A stretch of DNA of 32,000 nucleotides from Geomonas oryzisoli (GCF_018986915.1 NZ_CP076723.1:3964228-3996227), one strand, 5' to 3'; shown: positions 1-23,307, counted from the stretch's first letter. Program-made: numbers and translations. The notes: a model not told the origin generated them from the sequence alone.

Positions 1-1277
1 ACCGGGTTGCCGTCCTGGAACATGATGGCGGGGATGGGGCCGGAGGGAGGATCGTAGACCCTGGTGACGGTCTCGGCGCCGGCGTCCTCGGGACAGAGCT
101 GCGGCTCGTCGGACAGTTCCTGGAGGGCGTCGTCGTGCCAGAACTCCACCGCGACGCGCCGGTTCAGCGCCCTCCCCTGCGGGGTGTCGTTGGAGGCCAC
201 CGGTTGCGTGGCGCCCTTCCCCTCGCTCTCGAAGGAGACCGGGGCACCCTTCAGGGCGTCCTGCACGGCGAGGGCGACGCGCCGGGCGACCGCCTTGGAG
301 AGTCCCGTCTGGTCGCCGTAGATGCGCTCGTCCCGCTCCGCCAGCGGCGTGGTGTCGCTGTAGGCGATGAACTTCACGGCGACGTGCTGCTTGCCGGAGA
401 GGTTGTTGAGCGCCTGCCTGATCTGGCGCGGGAACTCATCCGGCACGGAGACGAGGGCCGCGTCGTACTGCAGGGGGGCGACGAGGTTCTTGATCCGGAC
501 CCGGTGCGAGAGCCCTTCCTTGTAGCGCATCTTGCAGACCGTTTCGGTTCGGCAGATCTTGACCCGGTTCACCTGCGCCGGGACGATCACTTCCCTTTCC
601 ACCATCTTCTCGCCGATCTCGTCGTACCAGACCTCGACCTCAACCCGCCGGTTCAGGGCCCTCCCCTCCTCGGTGGCGTTGGAGGCGACCGGCTTGGCGT
701 CGCCCATCCCCTCGTAGGAGATCGCCTCCGGCGGAAGCCCCAGGGCGCGCTGGCAGTATTCTGCCGTGGTGCCGGCTCGCTCGCGGGACAGCCCGGTGTT
801 GTCGCCGAATTTCCCCTGCAGCGCCCCGCTCAGGCGCTGGCTGTCGGCGTGCCCCACGAAGTGGAGCCGGACGTTGGCGCGGCCGCGCATCTTCTCGAGC
901 ACGCCGCGCAGAAGCTCCAGGTACTCCCGGGTGATCTCCGCCTCGCCGGTGCGGAAGCGGATGGGGGGCACCAGGTCGGTCAGCTTGACCGTCTTCACGT
1001 CCTTCTCGGCGACCTTGCGCTTTTCGGTGCGGTCCCCCTGGTCCTGCGCAAACACGGACGGGTCGAGAAGCCACGGGGTATAGGTCGCTTCCTTGGGCAG
1101 ATGCCCCTCGGTCGTCTCACCGCGACCGGCGGCGTCCCGGACGTTGGGGGTCGTGGCCGCCGGCACGGCGGCAGCCTTGGCGACCGGCGCGGGTGTGCTC
1201 TCCGCACGGGCCGCGGGCCCGGCTGCGGCCAACGACACCAGGATCATGAATGTAAGGGCGATACGTCGCTTCACCAT
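1..1277 (-). CDS. OmpA/MotB-family envelope protein with two tandem OmpA_C-like peptidoglycan-binding domains; partial, C-terminus lies beyond the window start
   Basis: Absent from the ORF track because it has no stop in the window. The minus-strand frame is open from ATG 1277 (alternative in-frame ATG at 1286) to base 1; I checked that no TCA/TTA/CTA falls in that phase. The translation starts MVKRRIALTFMILVSLAAAGPAARA (signal peptide). It contains two OmpA-C signatures: ...VRLHFVGHADSQRLSG...GLSRERAGTTAEY...NATEEGRALNRRVEVEVWY and ...VKFIAYSDTTPLAERDERIYGDQTGLSKAVARRVALAV...NDTPQGRALNRRVAVEFWHDD. Confidence 0.8.
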   Translation of the reverse strand, partial: MVKRRIALTFMILVSLAAAGPAARAESTPAPVAKAAAVPAATTPNVRDAAGRGETTEGHLPKEATYTPWLLDPSVFAQDQGDRTEKRKVAEKDVKTVKLTDLVPPIRFRTGEAEITREYLELLRGVLEKMRGRANVRLHFVGHADSQRLSGALQGKFGDNTGLSRERAGTTAEYCQRALGLPPEAISYEGMGDAKPVASNATEEGRALNRRVEVEVWYDEIGEKMVEREVIVPAQVNRVKICRTETVCKMRYKEGLSHRVRIKNLVAPLQYDAALVSVPDEFPRQIRQALNNLSGKQHVAVKFIAYSDTTPLAERDERIYGDQTGLSKAVARRVALAVQDALKGAPVSFESEGKGATQPVASNDTPQGRALNRRVAVEFWHDDALQELSDEPQLCPEDAGAETVTRVYDPPSGPIPAIMFQDGNP

Positions 1278-1376
1278 TGGTCCCATCCATCTACCCAAAC
1301 AGGTTAGGTTCTCTTGCTGTCCCAATATCAATGCAGGTCACCGATCTTTAGCTGCACAGGTTTCTGCGCTTCCGTT

Positions 1377-1457
1377 CCCTCCCCCGGAGGGGGAGGGTTA
1401 GGGAGGGGGATCGCCGGAAGATTCCCCCCCTCCCGACCTCCCCCCTCCGGGGGGAGG
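1377..1457. repeat. C/G-tract hairpin repeat cluster (REP-like) between the giant gene and the OmpA gene
   Basis: Perfect palindrome CCCTCCCCCGGAGGGGGAGGG at 1377-1397, followed by TTAGGGAGGGGGA. A second hairpin CCTCCCCCC-TCC-GGGGGGAGG lies at 1437-1457. Both sit in the 207-nt gap between stop 1485 and start 1277. Confidence 0.6.
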
Positions 1458-1484
1458 AGCCCGCGCTTCTTACCGTCTGCTGCA

Positions 1485-4400
1485 TCACGGCGGCGCCCCC
1501 CGGCGCCAGAACACCTCGGTCTCGATGGTGAGCGGGTAGCCGTCCCCCCACTTGCCGGAGATCTCCGCCTTGAGCGCCTTGAGGCGCCGCTCCACCAGGG
1601 CCTTGCTCTCCACCTCGGCGAGGTAGGAAAGCCTGAGCACCGCCGGGGCCTTGCGCAACTCCTTCAAAAGGAGGTCGATCCGCGGCTGCCACTGCCTGCG
1701 CAGCCTGGTTCCGTTGGGTTCGAAGGCGCCGTCGGCGACGTCCAGGGAGACCACGTGGTGGATGGCGGCGCCGAAGTTGAAGCGCAGCATCTTGCCCCGT
1801 GTCGCCCGCTGCACCTGGGGGTTCTCGCCGGTGACGCGGTACCCGGTAGGGAGGGTGCGCTCGTCGAGCTTGAGGATGAAGTTGCTGCCCCGGTCCTGGT
1901 CCGGGACCATCGCGCAGGTGATGTGGAAGCGGCCGAACTCGTCGGTGGTGGCGACGAGCCCCCGGGCGGTCACGGCGCGCACACCGGCGAGCCCCTTTTC
2001 TCCCTGGTCCGGGTAGCCGTTGGTGTTGACGTCGTCAAACACCTTGCCGATCACGTCGGTGCAGTCGAGGTCCGCATCGGGGATGACGCGGACGGTCGCC
2101 GAGGCGACCCCGGAGGCGACGCTGTCGGTGATGTTGCTCAGCACCTGGGCGCGGTTCACGTACTCCCCTTCGGAGACGCCGGAGCCGACGATCATGAGGA
2201 AGGTGATGCTGTGGCTGGTGCTGCTGGTGAGCTGCGAGATGTTCCAGGTCATCTGGCGCGTGTTCTGCGTCGGCTCCGCCTTGCGGCCGTCCAGGCGCGC
2301 CGACCCCGCCACGTACTTGAATCCCGCCGGGAAAGTGTCCACCACGCTCAGGTCCCTGAGGGTCGCCCCCAGGGTGTTGTTGAGGGTGATGGTGTAGGGG
2401 ACCAGGGTGCCGCGCGACACGTCGGTCACGGCCGCGGTCTTGGTGATGGCGATCGCCGTGTTGAGCGTGGGATCGACGGCGATGTGGTTGTTGTAGATCT
2501 GGCTGTAGCCGGGCTGCAGGTTGTCCAGGGTAAGCCGCAGGTAATAGGCGGTAGCGGCGCCGGGGAGGACGGAGGTGCCGGGCGCCAGGTCGGAGGCCTG
2601 CGCCTCGCAGTACCCGGCCGTGGTCGGCACCGCGTCGAAGGCGCCGCCGGGGCAGGAGGGTACCGCGAAGGAGGCGGTGCTGTCGCTGGAGGCCGGGGGC
2701 ACCAGTTTCGAGACGCCCGCCGTGTACCCGGATGCCGGCGGCGTCACCTGGATCAGGTAATCCCCGCCGGAGGGGCAGGAAGGATCGCTGAAGTTGAGGT
2801 CGAACTTGTAGAGGCCGCTGGCCGTGGTGACCTGCCCCTGCTGCACCGGGTCATTGAAGCAGCTCGCGGCGAGAGCTGTCCTGCTTGCCGCCTGGACCAT
2901 GGTCAGCGTCGCGCCCGGCACCGGGGTGCGGACGATGGAGTTGTAGACCACGCCGTTGGGGGTGAGCGGCAGGTTCAGCCCCTGCAGCAGCGTCCCCCCT
3001 CCGGCCACGATGTCGGAGATGCGCTGCATGCCGTTGGTGAAGGGAGAGCTGCACCATCCCAAGAGGGCGGTGGCGGCGCCGGCGCCCGGCGCGCGGAAGC
3101 GGAGTTCATACCTGATCGCGGTGCCGGCGTTGGGGGTCACCCCGCTGAAGCGGTAGGAGCCGTCGGCGGAGCTGTTCACCGTCCCCACCGCGCGGCCGTC
3201 CTGGTACAGCTCCACCGCCCACCCCGCCGACGGGATCTCGCCGCCGTCAAGGACGTTGTCGTGGTTCGCGTCCTGCCACACCGAGCCGGCGAGGCTCGCA
3301 CTCCCCGGCATGCCGCCCACGGTGACCGCGGTCCCGGCGCTCGCCACCCGGGTGGGGGTGTCCCAGCTCGCCTGGGCGGTGTTGTTGACCACGCTGCCGC
3401 TGGACACGGTGGCGTTCAGCTTCACCTGGAAGCGCAGCGCGACGGAAGCACCCGGCGCCAGGGCGCCGTGGCTCGCGCCGTAGTTGGCAGTCAGGACCGG
3501 CGCCGCGTAACTGACCCCGCTGGAGGAGCCGTTCATGACAGCGGAGCCGGAGAGGTAGCTCCCCTGGGGCAGCAGCGGGGTCAGGTCGTCGGTCAGCACC
3601 ACGCCCGTAGCCGGGACCTGCCCTATGTTGGTGGCGCGCACCGTGTATTCCAGGATGCTCCCCGGCAGCGCGGCACCGCCGCCGACCACCACGGCGGACT
3701 TGGTGATGCTGAGCTGCTGGGCGTTCCCCACCGCGATCACCGTGGGCTGGTAGCCGTTGGCGGGGGTGCCGTCGGAGTCGGTGGCAAGCAGCGGCAGTTC
3801 CGCGCTGGCGACGCTCCCCTGGTTGCTGATCACGGTACCCGCAGCGACTCCCTGGTTGACCTGGACCTTGAAGGTTACGACACCGGTGCCGCCTGCCGCG
3901 AGTGTCCCGGCGGTCGCGGGGGGCGCGGGCGGGGTGACTCCCGGGGAGACGACACCGATGCCGTTGGTGAGGGGGGAAACTCCGGCCGCCGCGTCGGCTA
4001 CCGCCGCACCGTTCAGGCGTACGCTGTTCGGGACGTAGGTGGTGTTGGCGGGGATGGCGTCGGTGAACAGCACGCCGGTCGCGGGTGGCGCCCCCGAGTT
4101 GGTCATGGTGATGGTGTACTGGAGCTCGTCGCCGGGATCGACCAGGCCGTCGCCGTTGGCGTCGGCGACGAGCTGGACCGTCTTCAGCGCGTAGAGAAGC
4201 GGCAGGTTGCCGACGATCACGGTGGTCGGATCGTTGGGCACCGGCGTCGCCGGGTTGTCGGAAGCCTCTTCCGGGAACGGGCCGCTTGCCGCACCGGTCC
4301 CGGCCAGGAAGGCCTGATTGGAGATGAGGGTCCCGGCCACGACGCTCCTGCTGATCCTGACCTCGAAGGTGACGGTGGCCACGTTGCTCGCGGTACCGGC

Positions 4401-7400
4401 GGCCGCGGGCATGGTGCCCGGCACCGGGTTCGCGGGCGAGTTGACCGTCATACCCCCCTGCAGCGGGCTCGCAGCGCCGACGTCCGCCACCGGCTTGCCG
4501 TTCAGGGTGGTGCTGTTGGGGACATAGGCGGTGTTCGCGGGGACCTGGTCGCGCAGCGTGACCCCGGTCGCGTTCTCGGTGCCGTCGTTCTTGACGGTGA
4601 TGGTGTAGCGCAGCGTATCGCCCGCCTTGACCGTGGCGCTCCCGGAGGTAACGTCCCTGACCGTCTTCTGGAGCAGGAACCGCGGAGCCGACGCGATGAC
4701 GGTCCGGGTCGGGTCGGCCGTCCCCGGCAGCGAGGGGTCGTCGCTCAACTGCGACGGCAGCAGGGGGGACGCGACCTGCGCCTGGTTCTGCACCAGCGAA
4801 CCGCTGTCGAGCACCGGCGCCAGGGTGTCCTGGAACTCGACCAGCAGCACGTCACCCGCCTGCCCCTGCGGGGCCACGGTCAGGTTGCCGACGCTCACCA
4901 CCCCGGTCCCCTTGCCACCGCCGTTGACCGAGGTGGCGGCGACGTTCGCGCCGGCCGGGACGCTCAACAGCTTCAGCGTTCCGGGTGCGAACATGGCGGT
5001 CGCGTTCAGCTTGTCGAGTTCGTCGGTCAGGGTGAAGTTCGCCGCGCCCAGGGCGCCCACGTTGCGGATGGTGAGGGTGTACTTGAGGGTGTCGCCGGGC
5101 CTCGCGTTGGCACCGGACTGCCCGGTCGTTGCGTTCTGCACGGTCTTGGTGAAGCTCAAAAGCGGCGCCTGGGTGGTCACGGTGAAGGCGTCCTGGCTGT
5201 CGAGTACCCCGGGGGTGCCGTTGGTCAGCGCGGCGGTCGTGGCCTGTATATCCCCTGTAGCGGTGACCGCAGGGTCGGCGCTCAGCCACCTGGTGGCGCC
5301 CGCCACGTTGGTGAGGGTGATCCCCCCCGCCGTGTAGGGGTCGAGCGAGGCGCTGTACGTCACCAGCAGTCGCTCTCCCGGCGCGATGGCCGCCGCGGAC
5401 GACTTCATGGCGACGGTCATGGTGCAGGCGGGCGCGGGGGCGAAGCCCACGGTGAAGTCGGTGCCGTTCACGAGGTTCGCCGAGACGGGGGTGACCCCGT
5501 CGGCCTGGTAGACGCGCGCCGTGACGCCGGTCGGCGCCGAGCCGCACATGCTCCCCGGGGCGGGGGTGGTCACGCTGGGGAGGAGGTCGGTGAGGGTGGC
5601 CTGCCACGCGGTGCTGCCGCCGGTATTCTGGACGTTGAGCGTGAACAGGCCCGGGGCGAGCGCGTTGATGGTGGCCGGTCCGCTCTTTTGCACGGTCAGC
5701 GCGGGGCCGACGATGATGATCGCGGCGCTGGCGCCCGGCGCGCCGTTGGCCTGGGTGGCGGGGGTGCTGTTGACGCCGTTGTAGGTGTAGGTCGCCGTGT
5801 TCTGGAACTGCTTGCCGAGCGTGTTGGCGGCGGAATTGGTGAGCAGCACGGTGACGTTGATCACGGCCTGCTGGCCGGCCGGTATGTCGATGCCGCTGCC
5901 GCTGTCCTGGATCACGAGGCTCGTGGCGCTGCCGCTGTTGACCGGGGTGAAGGCAGGGCCGGAAACCCGCTGGACGCTCACGAAGCGCAGGTCCACCCCG
6001 GTCGCCGCGGCGCTCAAGTCGTCCAGGATGCGCACGTCGTACATGGCGGTGGGCTGAGGCACCGCGGGAACGGTGATGGTGTAGCCGAAGGGGCGGCCGA
6101 TGGCGGCGCTGGTCACCTGGGCCTGCTTCGAGAGCGCCGTGGCCGCCGCGGTGGTGAGCTGCACGGTGGCCGCGCTGGTCGGGCCGTAGAGCTGGCGGTT
6201 GGCGGGTACGCTCGCCGCCGGGATGTCCTGGCTGTCGAAGGAGTAGTAGCCGGTCACCTGCGCCTGGTTGTTCAGGGTCACCCCGGCGCCCAGCCCCGCG
6301 TCCCCCTTCACCTGGTAGGTCACCTGCAGGGTCTGCCCCGGGGGGACCGCGTAGAGCCCCGCCGAACCGGCCGCGTCGAAATTCCAGGTGGCGATACCGC
6401 TGGCCGCGCTGTAGCTCGGGGCGAGCGTGGGCAGGGTGGCGCTGGTCGTGCCGGTGGCGCTGTCCACGAGCGTGACGCCGGTGGTGGTGACGCCCCCCTG
6501 GCGCAGGCCGACCGGCAGGGTGTCGGCGAGGACCGGGTCGTAGGCCGGGGCGGTACCGCTGTTGGCCATCCTGACGGTGTAGGTGATCGCCTCGCCGGCG
6601 CTGATCACCGTGCCGCCGCCTGCCGTGGCCGCGCTCTTGGTGACGTTCAACAGCGGTTGCCAGACGTTCAAGGTGGCGCCGGAGTTCTTCGGGGTCGCGG
6701 CCACGCCGTTGATGGCGTAGTTGAGCGTGGCGCTGTTGACGAGCTGCTGCGCCGTCGGGGACTGCGCCAGCGCGTTCTTGACCACGTGGGCGCGGTACTG
6801 GATGGTGAGCGTGTTGTTCGCCGCGTTGTTGTCGGCCGTGTTGACGACGTTGCCCAGGTTCCAGGTCAGGGTGCCGGTGGCGCCGGGCGCTGGCTGGGAG
6901 GAGACCGTGTAGCTGAAATTGCCGCTCCCCGAGGCGGGGGCGATGCTCACCAGGGCGTCGTAGGCGAGGCCGGCCGGGAGCTGGTCGGTGAGCACCACGT
7001 TCTGCGTGGTCCCTTCCCGCAGGGTGAGGGCAAGGTTGTAGACCACGGTATCGCCCACCCGCACGGTCGCGTCGGTCGCACTCCCCGGTGCGGCGCTCCA
7101 GGAATCGGAGACCACGGTTTTGGCGAGGGCGGTCGGGTCCAGCGAGGAGACGGTGGCGGAGACCGGGCCGGAACAGTAGTTGTTGGGAAGGGTGGTGGCG
7201 GGGCAGCCGGCGCCTGTGCGTTCGCCGGGGACCGAGCCGGAGAGCGAGGTCCAGTCGACGTAGACGTCGTTGGTGATGGGGGCGCCGCTGGTCTCCAGCA
7301 CGGTCACCAGGTAGCTCAGCACCAGGGTCCCGCCGGCCGGGATGTCCAGGCTCGCGTCGCCGTTTTGGCTCCCCCAGTCCACGGCGCCGCTGGGAAGAGC

Positions 7401-10115
7401 GGCGGGCGTGGGCATGAAGCCGGTCACCGGCGCGCCGTTGATCTGCGCGGTGGCCGAGCCCGGTACCAGCGAGACGTTGGCGGGAAGGAAGTCCATGACG
7501 TCGGCATCGTAGGCCCGGGAGCCGCCGTCGTTGGTGACGGTGACGGTGTAGCGCAGGACGTCTGCGGGGGCCGCGGCGGCGGACGCGGCTTTCCCTGCCG
7601 GGGAGGCGTAGCCGACCGCCTTGGCCGCGGTGAGGTGCGGTTCGACCACCGTCATGTTGGCCGTGGTCGCCGCGCCGCCGGCCGACTGGGTCAGGCTGTC
7701 GCCGTTTAGCTTGTTGTAGGTGTAGGAAGCGGTGTTGCTGAAGCTGAGTCCAGCGCGGTTCGCACTGCTGTTCTGCAGTGCCGCCGTCACCTGGATAACC
7801 GCCTGCCCCCCCGCCGGTATGTCGATGCCGGTGGCGAGGTCCTGGAGGATGACGTTGGTCGCCGTGCCGGTGTTGGTGAGGTTCCAGTTGCCGCCGGAGA
7901 TGACGTCGGCACCGACGAAGCTCATGCCTGCCGCCGAGAGCCCCAGGTTGTCCAGTATCCTCACGTCGTAGAGCGGGACGTCCGCCGGGGTGGCGGGTAC
8001 CTTGATCAGGTAGCTGAACTGCTGACCGACGGTCGCCGTGGTCGAGGCAGGGTTCGCCTTGGAGAGTGCCCCCGGCGCCTGGATGGTGACCCTGGTGGGG
8101 TCTCCGCCGGAGCCGAGCAGCACGGTCCCATTGCTATAGGGATCGTCGCTCGGGCCGGCCCAGACCGTGACGGGGTTGGTGCTGGTGTCGGTCCCGGTGA
8201 CGCCGGCCTGGTTGGAGACGACGGTGCCGTTGGTGAGGGTCGCGTCGAGGGTCGCGTCGAACTCGACCTGGATCTGCGCAGTGGTGGTGGCGCCACCGGG
8301 GAGGGTGAGGCCGGAAACGGTGACGGACCCCGGGGTGCCGCCGCCGGGCTGGGTGACGCTCACCGTGCCGCCCGCCGGGGTGACGGTGACGTTGGAGACG
8401 GAGCGCAGCCCGGCCGGGAGGGTATCGGTGATGGTGACCCCGTTCAAGGGGGGCCAGGTGAAGTTCTGCAAAAGCAGGGTGTAGTGCAGCCGGTCTCCCG
8501 GAAAGGCCGCCGTGGCCGGATTGGCTCCGGTGGTCAGGTCGCGCACCGTCTTCTGGAAGTAGTAGCCTGCCAGCGCGGCGGTCACCGTGTAGGCATCCTG
8601 GAAGTCGAGGGTGCCGGGGGTGCCGTCGGTTATGGTCCGGTCGTACTCGCGGCGCCCGGGATAGCCGCTGTTGGCGCTGAACCACCTGGTGGCGCCGGCG
8701 ATGTTGGTGAGCGTCGCCCCCGAGGCGACCCCGGTGCTGTCGACCTGCGCCCGGTAGGTGACGATGAGGCGCTGGGTGGGGGCGATCTTGGCGGAATCGA
8801 GCAGGGTCAGGGTGAGCTGCCCGGGGGAACCGGGGCCGCCGCTCCAGGTGGTGGTGAAGTCGGTGCCGCTCACCAGCGGGGCCGACACCGGGGTCACCCC
8901 GTCGGAGGCGAAGACCTGGGCGCTGATGGTCCCGACCGGGGAGACGGTGCTCATGCCGGCCGGGATGTGGTCGGTGATGGTGGCGTTCCACGCTTCGCTT
9001 CCGCCGGTGTTCTGGACGTTGAGCGTGTACCTCACCTGTGAATCCATGTTGACCGTCGCAGCCGAACCGCTCTTGGTAAGGGTGAGGTTCGGCTCGACCA
9101 CCGTCATGGGCGGGGTGGTACCGGGCCATGCCTGCAGGTCCACCATGCTGGTGCTGTTGATCGGTTTGTTGAACCACATGTTGGCGGTGTTGGAGAACTG
9201 CGACCCCGCCTGGTTCACGCCGGCCGGGTTGCTGTCGAGGACGACGGTGACCTGGATCTCCAGGTTGTACCCTGCCGGGAGCGAGGCCAGCGCCGGGTTG
9301 TATTCGTAGGAGAAGACCAGGTGCCTGGTGGCGTCCGAGAGGACGCCGGGATGGCTGCTGAGCCAGCCGCCGCTCGCCCCGAGGGTGAGCGGCGCCCCTC
9401 CGTTGAGCGGCGCCCTCGCGCCGGTAGCGGGGTTCACGAGGTAGGCGGCGTTGGTCACGTAGCTCAGGGCGGCGCCCGTGGCGGTCAAGTCGTCGGGGAT
9501 GACCACGTTGGTCACCGTGGCGTCGTCGCTGTTGGCGATGTACTGGAACGTCCCCGTCGCGTCGAGTTTCCCCAAAAGCGGCACACTGATCGTATAGGTG
9601 AAGGGGACACCGACGGCGGCGGTGCTTTGCGCCGGGGGATTCTTCTTGCTCACCGCGTCGACCGGCACCATGAAGGCCTGGCAGGCCGGGCTGATGTTGT
9701 TGTACCCGCCCGGAGCCCAGTAGATCCAGAAATCGGACTGCGTCGGGTCGTTGCACGACATGTTGCCGTAATAAAAGACGTTCAGGAACGCGATGTAGTA
9801 GGATTGCTGCTGCGGGAAGTTGAAGTTTATGTTGGTGATCGGGAAGCCGCCGATGGAATCGGGGAAGTTCTTGATGGTGCAGTTGGTGTCGATCCCGAAG
9901 GTGGACGCCCCCCTGACCGCGGCGAGGGTGGCGGGGTTGTTGCCGTCGACCACGCCGCCGAACTGGGAGCAGAAGATCCCCGCTGCCCGGGCAGACGTGC
10001 CCCATCCGACCAGCATGACCAAAAGGGCGGCGGTCGCAGCCAGGCGCGCCACGGACCTGGCGGCGCCCATCCTGGCGGCGGCCATCGATAACATCAGCTT
10101 TGTCTGTGTCAGCAT
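1485..10115 (-). CDS. Giant secreted repeat protein (roughly 2,880 aa): N-terminal signal peptide, Cys-containing head domain, three isopeptide-D2-like modules, about eleven DUF11 (TIGR01451-type 'conserved repeat') domains, and two SdrD-B/Cna-B-like domains; putative adhesin or surface-layer component
   Basis: ORF 1485..10181 (2898 aa). The likely start is ATG 10115 ([46 protein letters not shown]); alternatives are 10094, 10085 and 10070. Recurrent DUF11 signatures are present (LTKSG...[81 protein letters not shown]). Cna-B-like segments are [16 protein letters not shown]...DGSYRFSGV and [23 protein letters not shown]...DEFGRFHI. There is no LPXTG motif, T1SS-type RTX repeat or autotransporter beta-domain. 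Confidence 0.9.
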   Translation of the reverse strand: [2876 protein letters not shown]

Positions 10116-10186
10116 TCTCACTTCTGCCCTCGATGAAGATCGCTCAACTACTGTTGCGGCCCTTGGCAGGCCGACCTGCACGCACC

Positions 10187-10236
10187 ACGAAAAAAACCCG
10201 CGCCACAGCCGGTACTTCGGCTGATGACGCGGGTTT
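10187..10236 (-). terminator. Strong rho-independent terminator between the 57-codon ORF and the giant gene
   Basis: The minus-strand RNA reads AAACCCGCG-uca-UCAGCCG-aaguac-CGGCUG-ugg-CGCGGGUUUUUUU. This gives 9-bp outer and 6-bp inner stems followed by a run of 7 U. On the plus strand the hairpin has no U-tract. Confidence 0.7.
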
Positions 10237-10308
10237 CACTTGCCCCGTAGGGATGAGACTTACCGCTGTTTCAATGCTGCTGTCGATTTTCCGGCCGGGG
10301 TGGCCGGG

Positions 10309-10482
10309 TCACTTCATTCTTTCGTTCCTGATCGCGTCGCAAACGCGGTAGTCGGCGATGTTCACCGTGACCTGCAGGTGCGGCGCGGAAAGAAGCCCGA
10401 TCTCCTTCATGCACTCGGTCAGCTTTCGTTTCCACTCCGGGTCAAGGGTTCGTTTGGTCAATTTTTCCATTGCATGCCTCAT
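10309..10482 (-). CDS. Hypothetical 57-aa protein, the first ORF downstream of the tandem riboswitches
   Basis: Not in the ORF track (below 60 aa). It runs from ATG 10482 (in-frame ATG 10470) to TGA 10311-10309. The RBS-like AGGAAAG sits 5 nt upstream. The translation is MRHAMEKLTKRTLDPEWKRKLTECMKEIGLLSAPHLQVTVNIADYRVCDAIRNERMK. No family was recognised. Confidence 0.45.
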   Translation of the reverse strand: MRHAMEKLTKRTLDPEWKRKLTECMKEIGLLSAPHLQVTVNIADYRVCDAIRNERMK

Positions 10483-10499
10483 GTAACTTTCCTAGGGAT

Positions 10500-10539
10500 A
10501 AAAAAAGAGCGCTCCCATCTACCGAAGATGAGAGCGCTC
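10500..10539 (-). terminator. Intrinsic terminator of riboswitch unit A (promoter-distal unit)
   Basis: The minus-strand RNA is GAGCGCUCUCAUCU-ucggu-AGAUGGGAGCGCUC followed by UUUUUUU. One position is a G-U wobble on the minus strand but a C-A mismatch on the plus strand, which fixes the functional strand. Confidence 0.8.
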
Positions 10540-10575
10540 CTAGATCGGGGGGGGTGCCGGATGCCAAGATGCTGA

Positions 10576-10661
10576 CTCATCTCTTCGGCAACCCGGCTAT
10601 CCTTCACAGGACCCGTGGCTTTGCGTCACCAGATCACTCTGGTTTTGCCCGTTCGGAGAAC
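10576..10661 (-). promoter_or_regulatory. GEMM-I (c-di-GMP-I family, Rfam RF01051-type) riboswitch aptamer, unit A
   Basis: The minus strand reads GUUCUCCGAACGGGCAAAACCAGA-GUGA-UCUGGUGACGCAAAGCCACGGGUCCU-GUGA-AGGAUAGCCGGGUUGCCGAAGAGAUGAG. It has the conserved GCAAA(A)CC box, a GNRA-capped P1 hairpin, the GACGCAAAGCC core, a P2 hairpin and the GGUUGCCGA 3' strand. Confidence 0.85.
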
Positions 10662-10702
10662 GTATTCTGTTTTAAATCGCGCCGACGCCTCGCGGAGCCA
10701 AT

Positions 10703-10741
10703 AAAAAAAGGCGCTCCCATCTGCCAAAGATGAGAGCGCCT
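10703..10741 (-). terminator. Intrinsic terminator of riboswitch unit B (promoter-proximal unit)
   Basis: The minus-strand RNA is AGGCGCUCUCAUCU-uuggc-AGAUGGGAGCGCCU followed by UUUUUUU. It carries the same minus-strand-only G-U wobble as unit A. Confidence 0.8.
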
Positions 10742-10774
10742 CTTGATCGGTAATAGCGGATGCCAAGATGGGAA

Positions 10775-10862
10775 CTCATCTCTTCGGCAACTCGGCTATC
10801 CTCATTCAAGGACCCGTGGCTTTGCGTCACCAGATCACTCTGGGTTTGCCCGTTCGGAGAAC
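10775..10862 (-). promoter_or_regulatory. GEMM-I (c-di-GMP-I family) riboswitch aptamer, unit B
   Basis: The minus strand reads GUUCUCCGAACGGGCAAACCCAGA-GUGA-UCUGGUGACGCAAAGCCACGGGUCCU-UGAAUG-AGGAUAGCCGAGUUGCCGAAGAGAUGAG. It has the same architecture as unit A, about 200 nt upstream of it. Confidence 0.85.
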
Positions 10863-10891
10863 TTTTTTAACAATTTGTAATCGACGGCCAC

Positions 10892-10920
10892 CTTTTAGCA
10901 GATGGCTTAACGCTTTGCAA
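10892..10920 (-). promoter_or_regulatory. Candidate sigma70 promoter for the tandem-riboswitch transcript
   Basis: The minus strand has TTGCAA (10920-10915), a 17-nt spacer and TAAAAG (10897-10892). It is preceded by A-tracts with repeated ATTGT (UP-element-like). The predicted start lies about 20 nt upstream of aptamer B, the same geometry as the 11676-11704 promoter. Confidence 0.4.
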
Positions 10921-11023
10921 CAATTTTTTTTCACAATCGCGGCAATTTTTTACAATCGCCGCGGCCACCGGCCGGAAAGCTTCTTTGGCCGCCGGGGCCG
11001 GGGAGGGAAAACCCGGCATGGTT

Positions 11024-11437
11024 TCAAGCGGTTTTGCACCGCCCCCCTGACAGGTCCCCCACGAACGCCCCCAGCTTCGCATCGCATTCGCGGATGTGGT
11101 GATTGACCCAATGGTCCAGGATAACCAGTTGGTCGATGCTCAGGCTGGCGCTCGCGGTTCGAGGCGTGCGGATGTCTATCATCCTCTGCCTGAAGATCTC
11201 ATGTTCATCCCTGTGCGCCAGGAAATCGGGATAGCAGGTGTCCATCATCAGCATCTGCTCGTAGTCGAAACACTGCGCCATGTACACCAGGATCTCGTCG
11301 AAGATGTACCCGTCCGGAGCCGGGCCTGTCATAAAGCGGTCATACGCTTCATTTATCTTCTCAACCACGTACTTGTGACACTGATCGATGTCTTCAATAC
11401 CGACCACCAGGTCTGAGGTCCATTTCGTGTTAAACAT
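11024..11437 (-). CDS. Hemerythrin-like metal-binding protein (bacteriohemerythrin family), 137 aa
   Basis: ATG 11437 is preceded by GGGAGGG 3 nt upstream; the track's 11449 start is a GTG inside the RBS. Hemerythrin motifs are present: W..DLVVGIEDIDQCHK, HRDEHEIF and WVNHHIRECDAKLG. Confidence 0.8.
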   Translation of the reverse strand: MFNTKWTSDLVVGIEDIDQCHKYVVEKINEAYDRFMTGPAPDGYIFDEILVYMAQCFDYEQMLMMDTCYPDFLAHRDEHEIFRQRMIDIRTPRTASASLSIDQLVILDHWVNHHIRECDAKLGAFVGDLSGGRCKTA

Positions 11438-11541
11438 AAGCCCTCCCACGGCATCATGCCAAGCACCCGAACGTTCACACTGGATATTTTGTCGTATCGA
11501 AACCGGCCCATGCCATGCTGGTCTCCCTGCGCCTGAACGCG

Positions 11542-11649
11542 AAAAAGCCGGGGCTTCGATATCAGGAGTGATATTTCGGCGACCCGGCTGTCTCGGTGAG
11601 ACCCTTTAGGCTTTCCGTCCCATCCTCGCGGATGGTTTAGTATTTTCGT
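11542..11649 (-). promoter_or_regulatory. Variant GEMM-I-like cyclic-dinucleotide aptamer (about 11573-11649) plus a putative terminator-type expression platform (11542-11589), in the hemerythrin leader
   Basis: The minus strand reads ACGAAAAUACUAAACCAUCC-GCGA-GGAUGGGACGGAAAGCCUAAAGGGUCUC-ACC-GAGACAGCCGGGUCGCCGAAAU. It has the GEMM-I layout (AAACC box, GNRA hairpin, GAC-G-AAAGCC core, second hairpin, AGCCGGGU.GCCGA). The canonical GC...GC closing pairs are replaced by the covarying CU...GG. The aptamer strand AGCCGGG (11589-11583) can instead pair with CCCGGCU (11552-11546), which is followed by UUUU. Confidence 0.55.
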
Positions 11650-11675
11650 GTATCGGTTCTTGTTATTGCGGACGC

Positions 11676-11704
11676 AACATAGCGCAGCAAGGCAAGCGTG
11701 TCAA
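11676..11704 (-). promoter_or_regulatory. Near-consensus sigma70 promoter for the hemerythrin leader
   Basis: The minus strand has TTGACA (11704-11699), a 17-nt spacer and TATGTT (11681-11676). This places the start about 20 nt upstream of the variant aptamer. Confidence 0.6.
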
Positions 11705-11821
11705 TGACATTTAATGTGCCGTACCCTAGCGTGCGGGCGAAACGGCAGCTTCCAAGGCCTGATCCCACCACCCCGATCCGGCCTTGGTCAAAACTGCCGC
11801 GGCACGGTGCACACGGGCCGC

Positions 11822-12568: not shown

Positions 12569-13393
12569 CTAGCAGGCAAAGGGTTTTTGCAGCATTATCG
12601 TCTGCACCGGCATCGGCGCCGGGAAGCCTGCGGCAGCGAGGCTCTCACGGATCACCTTGTTACCGTCGAAATAGACCTGCCAGTAGTGGTCATTGTGACA
12701 ATACGGCCGCACAGCGAGCACCGGGCCGAGCGCGGTGAATTCCAGGATATCCACCTGCACCTGGGGATCGGGCAGTACGTTGGGAACCTGGGCGAGCTTC
12801 TCCCGCAAGAGAAGCATGGCGGCAACGTGGTCGGCATCGCCGGAAAGCTGGCACTTCATTTCGACCCTCCTGAACGGGTTGGTCGAATAATTCTGGATGG
12901 TGTCGCTGAAGATCTTGTTGTTGCCGACCATGGTGAGGACGTTGTCCGCCGTGTTGATGGAGGTTATGAACAGCCCGATCTCCTTGATGGTCCCGGTCAC
13001 CCCTGCGGCTGTCACGAAGTCGCCGACCTTGAACGGGTGCAGCACGATCAGGAAGATGCCTGCGGCGAGGTTGGCGAGCAGGCCGCCCCAGGCGGCGCCA
13101 ATCGCGATGCCGACACCGGCGACCAAGGCTGCGAAGGTCGTGGTCTGAATGCCGCAGTAGCCGAGGATGGCGACCACCAGGACGATGTTGAGGGTGACGG
13201 ACACGAAGTTGCCGATGTAACGCATCAGGGTGGGATCGACCTTCTGCCTCTCCAGCACCCCCTGCAGCATGCGCCCGACCAGACCGATGAGCCAGCGTCC
13301 CACGAGCCAGAACAGGATCACTGCGACAAGTTTGGTGCCGTACTCGGTGGCATACGTCACTGCGAGTTGCTGATACTGCCCCACGTTGTCCAT
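12569..13393 (-). CDS. Small-conductance mechanosensitive channel (MscS family), 274 aa
   Basis: ATG 13393 is preceded by AAAGGAGGA. There are three N-terminal TM helices. The MscS pore and beta-domain signature is AGVGIAIGAAWGGLLANLAAGIFLIVLHPFKVGDFV...GTIKEIGLFITSINTADNVLTMVGNNKIF. Confidence 0.85.
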   Translation of the reverse strand: MDNVGQYQQLAVTYATEYGTKLVAVILFWLVGRWLIGLVGRMLQGVLERQKVDPTLMRYIGNFVSVTLNIVLVVAILGYCGIQTTTFAALVAGVGIAIGAAWGGLLANLAAGIFLIVLHPFKVGDFVTAAGVTGTIKEIGLFITSINTADNVLTMVGNNKIFSDTIQNYSTNPFRRVEMKCQLSGDADHVAAMLLLREKLAQVPNVLPDPQVQVDILEFTALGPVLAVRPYCHNDHYWQVYFDGNKVIRESLAAAGFPAPMPVQTIMLQKPFAC

Positions 13394-13468
13394 AGTTCCT
13401 CCTTTTACGGTGTGGCTGCCTCCTGCACTTGAAGTTCTCCAGCGGGTAACAAGTTGCAAAATAGGTCA

Positions 13469-14555: not shown

Positions 14556-15818
14556 TCAGCCGGTAATAAGAATCGCCCTGAAATCGTTCACGTTGGTGAG
14601 CGTGGGACCGGTCACGAGCGTTTCCCCCAGAGCCTCGAAAAAACCGTGTCCGTCGTTGTCATCGAGGCTTCGCTTCGGGTTGATCCCCAGCTCCCAGGCC
14701 CGCTGCAGCAGGTCCGGGCTCACAAAGCCTCCCGCTGTCTCCTCCTGGCCGTCCACCCCGTCGGTATCCCCCGCCACCGCATAGATTCCCTTTTCGCCCT
14801 CAAGCGCCAGCGCCAACGCCAGCAGAAACTCCACATTGGGTCCGCCGCGCCCGCTGCCGCGCACCGTTACCGTTGTTTCTCCCCCCGACAGCAGGACGCA
14901 GGGCGGGGCAAAGGGCTGCCGGCGCCGTGCCACCTGCAGCGCTACCGCCGCCAGCGCCTTCGCTACCTCTCTGGACTCGCCTTCGATGCGGTCGCTCAGG
15001 ATGTGGGCGGGAATCCCCTGCCGGAGGGCAAACTGAGCCGCGGCTTCCAGGGCCGCCTGCGGCGTCGCGACCAGGTGGAACTGCGCGTTGGCCAGGCGCG
15101 GGTCGTCCGGCTTCACCGACTCCCCGCGCCCGGAGGCGAGACACTCCCGCACCGACGCGGGGAGCGGGATGCGGTAGCGCTCCACGATGGCAAGCGCATC
15201 CTCGCAGGTGGTGGCGTCACCTACGGTAGGACCGGAGGCGATATCGGTGGGGTTGTCGCCGGGAACATCGGAGATGGCCAGGGTCCAGACGCGGGCGGGA
15301 TGACATGCGGCGGCAAGCCTCCCCCCCTTGACGGCCGAGAGGTGGCGCCGGACACAGTTGATTTCGGCGATGCCTGCTCCACAGCGCAGGAGTTCCCGGC
15401 TCAGTTCCTGCTTTTGCGCCAGGGTCACCCCCGGCAGGGGAAGGGGCAACAGCGCGGATCCGCCGCCGGAAATGAGGCAGACGACCAGATCGTCGCAGGT
15501 GAGGCCTTCGACCAGTTCGAGCATCCTGGCCGCCGCCGTGCACCCCGCCTGGTCCGGAACCGGATGCGACGCGCTCACCACCTCGATGCCGCGGCAGGGA
15601 ACTTCGTAGCCGTAACGGGTGACCACGAGCCCCGCTGAGATCTCCCCGGTCCAGGCGTCTTCGAAGGCGCGCGCCATGGCAGCCGAGGCCTTACCCGCAC
15701 CGATCACCACCAACCTTCCCTTCGGCAGAGGCGGGAGGTGGCGCGACAGGCAGTACTCGGGACGCGCCGACTGAACGGCGGCTTCAAACATCTGCTGCAA
15801 AAGCTTACGCGGCTTCAT
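14556..15818 (-). CDS. Glycerate 2-kinase / hydroxypyruvate-reductase-like protein (DUF4147 + MOFRL family), 420 aa
   Basis: The RBS GGGGAGGA is present. The N-terminus is ...RLVVIGAGKASAAMARAFE.... The middle is ...CLISGGGSALL.... The C-terminus is ...LLSGGETTVTV.G.GRGGPNVEFLLALA...AGDTDGVDG, typical of this family. Confidence 0.85.
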   Translation of the reverse strand: MKPRKLLQQMFEAAVQSARPEYCLSRHLPPLPKGRLVVIGAGKASAAMARAFEDAWTGEISAGLVVTRYGYEVPCRGIEVVSASHPVPDQAGCTAAARMLELVEGLTCDDLVVCLISGGGSALLPLPLPGVTLAQKQELSRELLRCGAGIAEINCVRRHLSAVKGGRLAAACHPARVWTLAISDVPGDNPTDIASGPTVGDATTCEDALAIVERYRIPLPASVRECLASGRGESVKPDDPRLANAQFHLVATPQAALEAAAQFALRQGIPAHILSDRIEGESREVAKALAAVALQVARRRQPFAPPCVLLSGGETTVTVRGSGRGGPNVEFLLALALALEGEKGIYAVAGDTDGVDGQEETAGGFVSPDLLQRAWELGINPKRSLDDNDGHGFFEALGETLVTGPTLTNVNDFRAILITG

Positions 15819-16633: not shown

Positions 16634-18256
16634 ATGCTGGCAAGTGTCAAAGTCGGTACCAAGTTGCTTTCAGCCTTTCTGCTGATTGCCGTGATAAGCG
16701 CGTTGGTGGGCGGTGTGGGGGTCCTGAAGATCCGCCAGATCGATGAGGCCGACACCCGCCTCTACGAGGAGATCACGGCGCCTTTGGCCACCGTCGCCCA
16801 GATGTCCATCGCCTTCCAGCGGGTCCGCATCAACCTGCGCGACTTCATGGAGGCCAAGGATGAGAGCGAGAGGCAGGCCGCGCTTGCCATGGTGGACAAG
16901 CTGCGCAAGGAAATCGGGGAGCGATCGACCGGGTTCGAGAAGAGACTCGATACCGACGAGGAGCGGAAGCTCTACGGCGAGTTCAAGGAATCGCGCAAGG
17001 TCTACGGCGGCTACATCGACCAGGTGACCGGACACGTGCAGGCAGGGAGGGTCGACGAGGCGATGACCCTCATGCACGGCGAGGCCCGAAAGGCGGCGCT
17101 GCACGAGCAGGAGCAGCTCAACAAGCTCATGGAAGCAATGGAGAAACAGGCGGAACTGACGGCGAAGGACAATGCGAGGATCGCCGAGGTCGCCACCATC
17201 GTCATGACGGCGCTGGTCATCGCGGGGATGGTGATCGCCGTCGTCTGCGGCCTGGTGATAACCAGGATGATCACCAAGCCCCTCCACGCCGCCGTTGCCG
17301 CGGCCAGCGCCATCGGCGCCGGCGATCTCACCACGCGGATCGAGGTCACCTCGCGCGACGAGACGGGGCAGCTCATGGCGGCGCTGCAGGCGATGGCGGA
17401 AAACCTGCGCAGCACCATCGGCAAGGTCGCCGACACCTCCGCCCAGGTTGCCTCCGCCTCCAACCAGTTGCATTCCACCTCGGAACAGATCGCAACCGGC
17501 GCGGAGGAGGTCGCGGCCCAGGCCGGCACCGTGGCCACTGCCGGGGAGCAGATGTCGGCCACCTCGTCGGACATAGCGCGCAACTGCCAGATGGCGGCCG
17601 AAGGGGCCAAACGCGCCTCGAAATCGGCCCAGAGCGGGGCGGAGGTGGTCCAAGGGACCGTAACGGTGATGGGACAGATCGCAGCGAAGGTGCAGGAAAC
17701 GTCCAGGACCGTCGAGAGTCTCGGCGAGCGCAGCGATCAGATCGGAGCCATCATCGGCACCATCGAGGACATAGCGGACCAGACCAACCTCCTGGCTTTG
17801 AACGCGGCCATCGAGGCGGCCCGGGCCGGCGAGCAGGGACGCGGCTTTGCCGTCGTCGCCGACGAGGTGCGCGCCCTGGCCGAACGGACCACCAGGGCGA
17901 CCCGGGAGATAGGGGAGATGATCAAGGCGATCCAGAGCGAGACCAAGGGTGCCGTGGTCGCCATGGAAGAAGGTGTGCACCAGGTCGAGGCCGGAACCGC
18001 CGAAGCCGCCAAGTCCGGCGGCGCGCTGCAGGAGATCCTGGAGCAGATCAACGACGTGGCCATGCAGATCCACCAGGTGGCTACCGCCGCCGAAGAACAG
18101 ACGGCGACTACCAGCGAGATCTCCAGCAACATCGTGCAGATAACCCAGGTCGTGCAGCAGACCTCGCAAGGGGCACAGGAGTCGGCGAGTGCGGCGGCCC
18201 AGTTGCACAGGAACTCCGAGGAACTACAGCAGTTGGTCAAGCAGTTCCGACTCTAG
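16634..18256 (+). CDS. Methyl-accepting chemotaxis protein (4-helix-bundle-type periplasmic domain, HAMP, MCP signalling domain), 540 aa
   Basis: The RBS GAGGAGGA is present. TM1 is [21 protein letters not shown] and TM2 is near aa 190-215. The HAMP segment is [22 protein letters not shown]. The conserved hairpin tip is [40 protein letters not shown]. Confidence 0.9.
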
Positions 18257-22632: not shown

Positions 22633-23307
22633 ATGCGCATCCTGATCATCGAAGACGAGCAAAAGGCCGCCAATTACCTGAAGAAGGGGCTCACCGAGAA
22701 CGGCTTCAGCGTCGACATCGCCAACGACGGCGAGGACGGCCTGCACCTGGCCATGACCGAGCAGTACGACCTGATCATCCTCGACGTGATGCTCCCCATC
22801 AAGGGGGGATGGGCCATCATCCAGGAGCTTAGGGAGGCCGGCAAAGAGGTCCCGGTGATCTTTTTGTCCGCGCGGGACTCGGTGCACGACCGGGTGCACG
22901 GCCTGGAGCTGGGGGCGGACGACTACCTGGTGAAACCGTACGCCTTCTCGGAGCTTTTGGCCCGGATCAGGATCATCCTGCGCCGGCACCCCCTGCAGCA
23001 AAGCGAGCTGCTCAAGCTGGCCGACCTGGAGCTGGACCTGGTCCGGCACAAGGCCCGGCGCGGCGGCCAGACCCTCGACCTCACCGTGAAGGAGTTCCAG
23101 CTCCTCGCGCTGATGTTGAGGCGCCGCGGCGAGGTGCTTTCCCGCACCACCATCTCCGAGCAGGTGTGGGGCATCAACTTCGACAGCGACACCAACGTGG
23201 TGGACGTCGCCATCAGGAGATTGAGAAAGAAGGTGGACGATCCCTTTACCCTGAAACTCATCCACACCATCAGGGGGGTCGGCTATGTCATCGACGAAGC
23301 TGCCTGA
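22633..23307 (+). CDS. OmpR-family response regulator of the heavy-metal (CusR/CopR/CzcR-like) subfamily, 224 aa
   Basis: The N-terminus [32 protein letters not shown]......[11 protein letters not shown]...GW is followed by ...[25 protein letters not shown] and a winged-helix C-terminus (...[11 protein letters not shown]). Confidence 0.85.

Follow-up and report, generated by a model that had tools for sequence, protein, structure and literature searches.

The 32,000-nt stretch of Geomonas oryzisoli DNA analysed here (GCF_018986915.1 NZ_CP076723.1:3964228-3996227; hereafter the window) encodes, on the minus strand to which the coordinates of the locus refer, a giant repeat protein of 2,878 aa and an OmpA-domain partner, whose gene runs off the window at base 1. 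The giant gene is preceded by a tandem array of two GEMM-I riboswitch units, each with its own terminator, by a conserved gene for a 53-aa protein and by a near-invariant 39-nt element that overlaps a third terminator, while a further GEMM-I aptamer stands before a bacteriohemerythrin gene. The reading preferred here, with a probability of roughly 0.6, is that the window holds two separate transcription units controlled by cyclic dinucleotides, namely the hemerythrin unit and the operon comprising the array and the giant gene. An earlier note on the same DNA had listed the minus-strand elements from 11704 down to 1, and every feature on that list is present. Its proposal of serial riboswitches with terminators ahead of a giant gene and an OmpA partner agrees with both the Rfam matches and covariation, but its picture of three stacked elements has been given up, as the hemerythrin riboswitch, which has a promoter and a terminator to itself, forms a unit apart.

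Two probable transcription units

The array is headed by a promoter-like block (10892-10920) made of an A-tract and the motif TTGCAA-17-TAAAAG, which is invariant in the window and in four Geomonas species and has diverging flanks. Judged by this conservation, the block probably serves as the array promoter, where a promoter-like region had indeed been suggested. The hemerythrin unit (unit H) begins with a sigma-70-like promoter (11676-11704, TTGACA-17-TATGTT) that matches 10 of the 12 consensus positions, as claimed earlier for the region ahead of the first aptamer; the consensus scan returned three promoter-like sites in the scanned region, where 0.9 were expected.

Rfam was run at its curated gathering thresholds (RF01051 / clan CL00126; thresholds of 35 and 59 bits), and aptamer H (11575-11651) was recognized by RF01051 with 45.3 bits against the threshold of 35. 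The position equivalent to G20 of the Vc2 aptamer contacts the ligand, with G found in binders of cyclic di-GMP (c-di-GMP) and A in binders of c-AMP-GMP (PMC9481103), although it is regarded as a selectivity factor and not as a hard filter (PMC9262584). An A occupies this position in all five Geomonas hemerythrin units (the window and four species), which makes aptamer H a candidate of the cyclic GMP-AMP (cGAMP) type, the ligand probably being 3',3'-cGAMP. In the minimum free energy (MFE) fold, the unit H terminator (11542-11589; AGCCGGG...CCCCGGCU followed by U5) uses the 3' strand of aptamer helix P2; it overlaps the aptamer, and the two folds are mutually exclusive. Because the terminator is made from the aptamer's 3' strand, ligand binding should block termination, and unit H would act as an ON switch for the bacteriohemerythrin gene. 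That gene (11024-11437, 137 aa) matches PF01814 at 2.4e-9 and TIGR02481 with 69.9 bits against a cut-off of 51.75, in line with the earlier hemerythrin-like annotation. The gene and its aptamer occur only in the window and the four Geomonas species. Since the hemerythrin unit is confined to Geomonas and the array has its own promoter-like block, only two riboswitches are assigned to the giant operon.

The riboswitch array and its expected ligand

The aptamers of unit B (10783-10860) and unit A (10583-10658) score 61.5 and 62.6 bits, so that all three GEMM-I-like elements of the earlier note pass the Rfam gathering thresholds. Both units fold into the two-hairpin aptamer (P1a/P1b with a GNRA tetraloop, and P2) closed by P1. 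They lie approximately 200 nt apart within one leader, each as a complete aptamer with a terminator, and form a tandem riboswitch in the sense of at least two complete units of one ligand class in one leader. Across an alignment of 32 homologous array units, the pairs of the aptamer hairpins are standard in 85-100 % of cases, while the P1 closing helix is uninformative because it is invariant. The G20-equivalent position, just 5' of P1a, is a G in 32 of 32 units. As units A and B carry this G, c-di-GMP and not cGAMP is the expected ligand, and the array units appear to be ordinary c-di-GMP-I riboswitches. Of the two messengers named in the earlier note, c-di-GMP is expected for the array, and the cGAMP type is indicated for unit H.

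Assignment of the units to the Rfam GGC or UAU variants was rejected: the best model flips between family members, and the discriminating nucleotides are ordinary. Unit A has its top score on the GGC variant model, yet carries the ordinary GACGCAAAG, which the window units have at the site where the GGC consensus reads GACGCGAAG. More generally, near-identical aptamers (10583-10860 in the window, and those of the homologous loci L001-L017) receive c-di-GMP-I, -GGC or -UAU labels with scores near the thresholds, and within this Geobacteraceae clade the variant-model labels do not follow the ligand-contact nucleotides.

Both array units end in long intrinsic terminators, as had been claimed: 17 pairs followed by U7 in unit B (10703-10744) and 16 pairs followed by U7 in unit A (10500-10541), placed at 10706-10744 and 10505-10541 by the terminator scan. 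In the 32-unit alignment, compensatory changes were found in 7 terminator pairs (28 cells), and none of 500 shuffles reached the observed covariation score.

Folding of the array units

Three segments can pair with the 3' strand of P1, GCCGAAGAGAUGAG: P1's own 5' strand, a downstream decoy and the terminator arm. The decoy, CAUCUUGGCA(Y)CCGG, pairs with this strand and, with the aptamer P2 3' strand included, gives a 16-bp alternative helix that is 92.7 % paired and contains four compensated cells, its covariation score being reached by 0 of 500 shuffles. The competing 11-bp antiterminator, formed by the P1 3' strand with the terminator's loop and inner 5' arm, is 96.9 % paired and shows no compensation. 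Where the key position is an A, in three units, compensation occurs in the decoy and is missing from the antiterminator.

The MFE fold changes as the transcript grows: the alternative helix is preferred as long as the terminator arm is missing, the full antiterminator, with the aptamer hairpins intact, when arm and loop have been transcribed (25 of 32 units), and the terminator together with the alternative helix at full length. On average, the full antiterminator exceeds the P1-locked fold in stability by 7.7 kcal/mol. According to path-barrier estimates, which are heuristic upper bounds, the alternative helix is entered almost barrier-free before the terminator arm is transcribed, and conversion from it to the antiterminator has to overcome approximately 12-17 kcal/mol. 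The barrier to terminator formation amounts to approximately 14 kcal/mol from the full antiterminator, as opposed to 3.5-3.9 kcal/mol from the ligand-locked or alternative-helix states. A second antiterminator, compatible with bound ligand, pairs the linker and decoy with the outer 5' arm (approximately -11 kcal/mol, compared with -6.9 kcal/mol for shuffled sequence), and its barrier to the terminator is only about 3.5 kcal/mol. On the switching direction the folding analysis points both ways: the equilibrium favours an OFF switch, whereas covariation and barriers favour the alternative helix, which fits an ON switch.

The small protein gene

When the 57-codon open reading frame (ORF) listed by the earlier note was compared with 5.8 billion proteins, 42 protein clusters at 67-91 % identity were recovered, and all named clusters belong to Geobacteraceae (Geomonas, Citrifermentans). 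The ORF itself was thus correctly seen, but the homologue alignment sets its start at ATG 10470, preceded by the ribosome-binding site GAGG, and its length at 53 aa (10309-10470); it is a conserved gene and no filler. Among 28 distinct DNA copies, substitutions at codon positions 1, 2 and 3 number 1830, 1338 and 5662, and the third position varies in 43 of 46 compared codons. As substitutions concentrate at the third codon position, the ORF is considered to encode a protein under purifying selection.

The small protein matches no Pfam or NCBIfam family, including Pfam at E <= 10 on 26 homologues, and a profile search of 1.84 billion representative proteins recovered only 13 relatives, all of them small proteins or short repeats. 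Residues 16-32 (10375-10425), KLTECMKEIGLLSAPHL, loosely resemble the c-di-GMP-binding MshEN motif RLGxxLLxxGLLxxxxL, although Pfam gave no match; if the likeness is real, the small protein could itself sense c-di-GMP. A role of the ORF as a leader peptide for ribosome-mediated attenuation was rejected, its stop codon lying 40-130 nt of variable sequence upstream of the 39-nt element.

The 39-nt element and the third terminator

Directly after the small ORF and before the next terminator lies a 39-nt element, GCGGTAAGTCTCATCCCTACGGGGCAAGTGAAACCCGCG (10228-10266), which is identical or nearly so in 31 loci (the window, 12 species genomes and metagenome loci) and more conserved than the small ORF itself. 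A pattern scan of metagenomes yielded 17 further copies, 17 of 17 directly after the small ORF. The element matches no Rfam family (E <= 10, region 10050-11750), and no sigma-70, sigma-54 or extracytoplasmic function (ECF) promoter was recognized in it by eye.

When the sequence is cut before the 3' arm of the terminator, the element adopts in all lineages an imperfect hairpin of 13 bp (GCGG-UAA-GU-C-UCAU-CCC-UACG-GGG-CAA-GUGA-A-AC-CCGC; -13 to -15 kcal/mol), in which six nucleotides from the 5' arm of the terminator are engaged. A 17-nt internal duplication in L011 and L014 leaves the outer frame of this hairpin intact. The third terminator (10190-10236) has a stem of 13+6 bp followed by U7 (z = -3.8), and the stem interior varies between species with compensation. 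The strong terminator of the earlier note is hence present, but it had been described without the overlapping, near-invariant, antiterminator-like block that precedes it.

The U-tract of this terminator is separated from the giant start codon by only 41 nt in G. edaphica and G. oryzae, and in Citrifermentans bremense a further riboswitch starts approximately 30 nt past it. Because the 41-nt gap is too short for a promoter and the C. bremense riboswitch lies so close downstream, the giant gene must be reached through the third terminator. A trans-acting factor that stabilizes the element hairpin would be the simplest way past it, and the 53-aa protein is the obvious candidate, because it co-occurs with the element.

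The giant protein and its partner

The giant gene (1485-10121) most likely starts at GTG 10121, in agreement with the gene call in G. propionica, and its 2,878-aa product contains 8-10 copies of DUF11/CLIPPER (eight stretches of PF01345, ten of TIGR01451), eight of the isopeptide-forming TIGR04226, and further SdrD_B and Cna-B-like pilin-domain matches in Pfam and NCBIfam. The 8.6-kb DUF11/Cna-B repeat gene of about 2,880 aa described earlier is therefore confirmed. An N-terminal Sec-type signal peptide can be read from the sequence, and the tandem isopeptide-type domains behind it correspond to a fibrillar adhesin stalk. DUF11, renamed CLIPPER, is a CnaA-like isopeptide domain of such stalks, among them Gram-negative examples anchored through an OmpA-like C-terminus (PMC12617251). 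In the giant itself no OmpA anchor was matched by Pfam, the OmpA domains being located on the next gene. Its C-terminus, ...ETEVFWRRGAPP, which ends in ...FWRRGAPP, is conserved, including in distant loci. A Pfam scan and inspection of the C-terminus identified no sortase LPXTG, RTX/type 1 secretion, two-partner secretion or autotransporter module in the giant, Pfam gave no such family for the partner's N-terminus either, and components of these secretion or sortase systems were likewise absent from the neighbouring genes read in the window and in orthologous loci. This agrees with the earlier view that no described adhesin secretion system fits.

The partner gene starts at 1286, and the window holds its first quarter, 428 codons (1-1286), encoding a signal peptide and two OmpA domains with the NRRVE-type motifs NRRVEVEVW and NRRVAVEFW. 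The double-OmpA anchor noted earlier was correctly recognized, but represents just the N-terminus of a protein of approximately 1,700 aa in every orthologue, with a probable beta-barrel. The family comprises over 3,716 proteins, nearly all with a length of 1,690-1,717 aa and named just "OmpA family" or "MotB". Full-length partners contain two canonical and one degenerate OmpA-like domain and an Ig-like region. The OmpA domains gave Protein Data Bank (PDB) profile matches to TssL, MotB, PomB and YfiB, and sequence and profile searches found no PDB relative beyond these domains. In a Pfam scan of 24 full-length partners, families of type 1 secretion, two-partner secretion, autotransporters or sortases were not detected, while the C-terminal approximately 900 aa gave weak, sub-threshold matches to the beta-barrel porin families DUF2490 (21/24), MtrB/PioB (5/24) and BBP2 (4/24). 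The C-terminal half is read as a probable large outer-membrane beta-barrel.

In the window, the giant and partner genes are separated by a 198-nt spacer with two perfect 9-bp C/G hairpins, CCCTCCCCC...GGGGGAGGG, at 1377-1397 and 1437-1457 within a larger inverted repeat (1377-1457), as the C/G hairpin repeats seen earlier. L006 (19055-19072) and L010 (19306-19326) have this motif at the corresponding place. The spacer looks like an insertion, because the two genes overlap in the distant loci L018 and L019.

Conservation and distant loci

One genome per species was scanned with the small-protein alignment, which yielded 12 Geobacteraceae genomes: Geomonas diazotrophica, G. propionica (L001), G. 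edaphica, G. oryzae, Citrifermentans bremense, Geotalea sp. and several Geobacter/Geobacteraceae metagenome-assembled genomes. In 12 of 12 genomes, between one and three GEMM-I units were detected ahead of the small ORF. On contigs that are long enough this ORF is followed by an ORF of 2,850-2,900 aa and then by an ORF with OmpA motifs, the giant being 1,755 aa in one genome and fragmented in another. The order of array, small ORF, element, giant and partner is held in all 12 genomes, as far as the contigs permit, and in the metagenome loci. In L010 (Geobacter sp. UBA9964), L012 and L015, a further complete riboswitch unit lies between the small-ORF terminator and the giant gene. The earlier note had named a lack of conservation of the riboswitch, adhesin and OmpA adjacency elsewhere as grounds for refutation; as this adjacency is kept in other genomes, the objection fails.

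The giant-partner pair also occurs in distant loci, probably of Gammaproteobacteria to judge from the names of related proteins (Woeseiaceae and others). The giant adjoins the partner in six of six distant loci read, and in both loci where the junction was noted (L018 and L019) the giant stop overlaps the partner start. The distant partner is 51 % identical to that of Geobacteraceae, and the giants are 40-50 % identical. A single GEMM-I aptamer, 60-150 nt before the giant gene, was found in three of five distant loci with a readable leader (L019 4862-4946, L039 4696-4785 and L040 3400-3487); L037 and L038 gave none at the threshold score. As distant loci carry GEMM-I before the giant gene, the link between riboswitch and operon extends beyond Geobacteraceae. 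These units are without a U-tract terminator, and their start region, CACAGGGA...AUGG, is conserved, features that point to translational control. Only Geobacteraceae-type loci yielded the small ORF and the invariant element.

Immediately upstream, five of five distant loci with a readable upstream flank contain an ExbB-ExbD-ExbD-TPR cluster, which may point to an energy-transducing system associated with the pair there; no ExbB/ExbD cluster is present in the window. In detail, the region upstream of the giant in L019, L037, L038, L039 and L040 (approximately 100-4800) encodes TPR proteins, ExbB, two ExbD and a protein of 460-474 aa without a known family.

Neighbouring genes

The remainder of the window (11714-32000) codes on the minus strand for an MscS-type channel (12569-13459) and for a glycerate-kinase-like protein of the DUF4147/MOFRL type (14556-15818). 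Further genes there specify two methyl-accepting chemotaxis proteins (16634-18256 and 20107-22557), an OmpR-type response regulator (22633-23307) and PBP-like binding proteins. These neighbours recur in G. propionica. Outside Geomonas the upstream context differs and includes GGDEF and IS1595, restriction/RadC genes and tRNA genes; the whole module may lie in a variable or island-like region. tRNA genes were noted upstream of the array in L003 (9254-9340), L014 (3299-3372) and L017 (8694-8765), and an IS1595 fragment with GGDEF in L002 (108-1557). The region directly upstream of the L010 array (1-3957) encodes part of a paralogous protein, its last 1,318 aa, which comprise a DUF11-like region, a single OmpA domain and a barrel-like C-terminus with the final residues ...FLRFRFKFDQ; the module may be duplicated in L010. 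L016 has an extra GEMM-I aptamer (1691-1767) 8 kb upstream of the array, before three ORFs of 727-907 aa.

Alternative readings

The array logic could match either that of Cd1 of Clostridioides difficile, in which ligand leads to termination, or that of Bc3-5 of Bacillus thuringiensis, in which it leads to readthrough. In general, c-di-GMP raises adhesin expression. Characterized c-di-GMP-I riboswitches before adhesin or surface-protein genes are ON switches (PMC4933901, PMC4759541). Because the alternative helix shows signs of selection, the validated homologous surface-protein switches are of the ON type and c-di-GMP raises adhesins, the best guess, by a hair better than even, is that c-di-GMP promotes readthrough of the array terminators. 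A weaker but serious contender is that the same architecture makes OFF switches and the fibre is produced at low c-di-GMP; the P1 3' strand would pair with the terminator 5' arm in the absence of c-di-GMP, and P1 and the terminator would form in its presence. Such logic is in keeping with the separation of aptamer and terminator, which are able to coexist as in Cd1, with the antiterminator as the MFE fold past the terminator loop, with its mean advantage over the P1-locked fold, plausibly covered by ligand-binding energy, and with the well-maintained pairing between P1 strand and terminator arm. It is countered by the lack of compensatory change in that pairing, by the three A-containing units that are compensated in the alternative helix instead, by the early and nearly barrier-free formation of this helix, from which the antiterminator is reached only over the high estimated barrier, and by the ON character of the known switches ahead of surface-protein genes.

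The extent of the operon and the role of the element allow further readings. That all three riboswitch-like elements are serial checkpoints for the giant adhesin, as the earlier note had it, is the least probable of these: the elements share one strand and no strong terminator is annotated past the hemerythrin gene, but eight of the 12 species genomes with the array and giant gene lack the hemerythrin unit, the array carries its own conserved promoter-like block, and aptamer H differs in the selectivity nucleotide and in platform design. It is slightly less improbable that the array controls the 53-aa gene alone, the strong terminator ending that transcript and the giant operon being transcribed independently. 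The strength of the terminator and the conservation of the small ORF as a protein with its own ribosome-binding site would suit this arrangement, but the short distance from U-tract to giant start codon in two species, the lack of a promoter-like site between terminator and giant gene in the consensus scan of the window, the additional riboswitch unit about 30 nt past the terminator in three lineages, the GEMM-I directly before the giant gene in distant phyla and the constant succession of small ORF and giant gene (all 12 genomes, and each metagenome contig of sufficient length) speak against it. Small RNAs of the Hfq type derived from 3' ends typically combine an extremely invariant sequence with a terminator hairpin and U-tail behind it. 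The 39-nt block resembles them in these traits and may thus be the body of a small RNA derived from the 3' untranslated region, or a processing or stability element, with the giant gene living on basal readthrough only, which is unlikely, although less so than the two preceding alternatives; the alternative hairpin has no covariation behind it, but the block is confined to this locus type and follows the small ORF in every metagenome copy, its 3' end overlaps the terminator arm to give the same stable fold in every lineage, and the frame of this fold survives in the insertion variants.

Several points weigh against the two-unit reading and the mechanism built on it. Transcription from the hemerythrin unit might conceivably run on into the array. 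At decision length, the ligand-free equilibrium fold predicted for most array units is the OFF-type antiterminator of the Cd1 design, and the high barrier to terminator formation is unique to that fold in the models. The element is invariant and so offers no covariation for its hairpin. The small protein matches no RNA-binding family in Pfam or NCBIfam, and its AlphaFold2 model is poor, with a predicted local distance difference test (pLDDT) score of 64 and one helix. The model of the partner's C-terminal 909 aa, built from an eight-sequence alignment, failed with a pLDDT of 34, and for this reason the barrel is proposed from the sub-threshold Pfam matches and a secondary structure rich in beta-hairpins.

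Proposed mechanism

On the two-unit reading, polymerase leaving the array promoter would have three terminators to pass before the giant gene. The first two termination decisions would be set by c-di-GMP, sensed twice in series, and the tandem arrangement would result in a steeper, more switch-like response. The third terminator would be opened by a factor stabilizing the invariant hairpin, for which the 53-aa protein is the leading candidate. The fibre would be exported by Sec and then displayed on, or held by, the partner, whose two to three OmpA-like domains may bind peptidoglycan and whose C-terminal half is probably a large beta-barrel in the outer membrane. A bolder version, an undescribed three-tier relay in which the array controls the 53-aa protein, which in turn opens the hairpin-guarded terminator and so releases the giant and its partner as a new and widespread export and anchoring route, must be regarded as rather unlikely. 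If true, the pair would both export Sec-dependent giant adhesins through the outer membrane of Gram-negative cells and anchor them there.

Comparison with known systems

That c-di-GMP riboswitches, also in tandem, stand ahead of adhesin genes is established. In B. thuringiensis, Bc2 (before the cap collagen adhesin gene) and the triple tandem Bc3-5 (PMC4933901, PMC4759541) likewise consist of complete class I units with their own terminators in series, have surface or adhesin targets and gain a more switch-like response from stacking. The alternative helix of the window resembles Bc4 in also using the aptamer 3' strand and the P1 3' strand, but in Bc3-5 the helix itself is the terminator, whereas in the window a separate, perfect terminator of 16-17 bp follows. 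The window further differs in embedding a protein gene and an antiterminator-like element with its own terminator between array and target, in its Gram-negative host and in its target, a CLIPPER giant with an outer-membrane partner. Surveys have identified tandem c-di-GMP-I units as the commonest tandem riboswitches, with 347 doublets and 12 triplets, and tandem c-di-GMP-II units before COG4932 surface-anchor genes (PMC9481103), as well as an enrichment of tandem c-di-GMP riboswitches in Thermodesulfobacteriota (PMC12452182). The window shares with these the class, the tandem logic, the phylum-level enrichment and the surface-anchor or adhesin target, while its relatives L010, L012 and L015 reach 3+1 units, split by the small gene.

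Unit H has the A at G20, the exclusive terminator and the Geobacteraceae host in common with the Geobacter GEMM-Ib riboswitches for 3',3'-cGAMP, such as pilM (PMC9262584), and in its design resembles both pilM and Bc3-5 (PMC4759541), which are ON switches with a terminator that excludes the aptamer. Its target is a bacteriohemerythrin gene, and its cGAMP preference is predicted from sequence. The Cd1 OFF switch (PMC9262584) is similar to the array units in that aptamer and terminator coexist and the closing strand can pair with the terminator 5' arm, but the array units carry an additional decoy, whose pairing with the closing strand shows covariation. The c-di-GMP-type array beside a cGAMP-type switch provides a natural test case for messenger discrimination in Geobacteraceae.

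For the third terminator, the nearest parallel is antitermination by the BglG/SacY/LicT family, in which a conserved imperfect hairpin, the ribonucleic antiterminator (RAT) recognized by the co-antiterminator (CAT) domain, overlaps the terminator 5' arm and blocks the terminator when stabilized. The likeness is a functional analogy only, based on the overlap of the element hairpin with the terminator 5' arm: the element sequence is unrelated and matches no known RNA family in Rfam, and the candidate binder is a 53-aa protein in which Pfam detects no CAT or PRD family. Embedded in the riboswitch leader are a conserved small gene and an RNA element that exceeds every neighbouring coding sequence in conservation, an arrangement that points to a further, protein-dependent antitermination step after the RNA sensors.

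A search of the literature on DUF11 with riboswitches and on GEMM, Geobacter, OmpA and adhesins, which did not extend to the supplementary lists of the tandem surveys, yielded no description of this locus. Within that literature, the small gene and invariant antiterminator-like element embedded in a riboswitch leader, the 3+1 arrays split by a small gene, and the CLIPPER giant and OmpA/probable-barrel partner as a regulated pair are not described. The relay hypothesis and the uncharacterized export and anchoring pair are considered the most valuable leads. The pair, annotated just as "DUF11" and "OmpA/MotB family", is retained at 40-50 % identity between Geobacteraceae and distant lineages, and GEMM-I before it in both groups offers a c-di-GMP handle on the surface delivery and retention of Sec-exported giants without known signals. 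Among the CLIPPER fibrillar adhesins of Gram-negative bacteria, B9T28_05395 of Acinetobacter silvestris (PMC12617251), like the giant, has a long CLIPPER/CLIPPER_2/DUF7619 stalk behind a signal peptide and is associated with an OmpA-like peptidoglycan-binding anchor module, in its case the C-terminal domain of the same polypeptide. The giant of the window, in contrast, ends in ...FWRRGAPP without a Pfam OmpA match, and its OmpA domains reside on a separate protein of approximately 1,700 aa with a probable beta-barrel.

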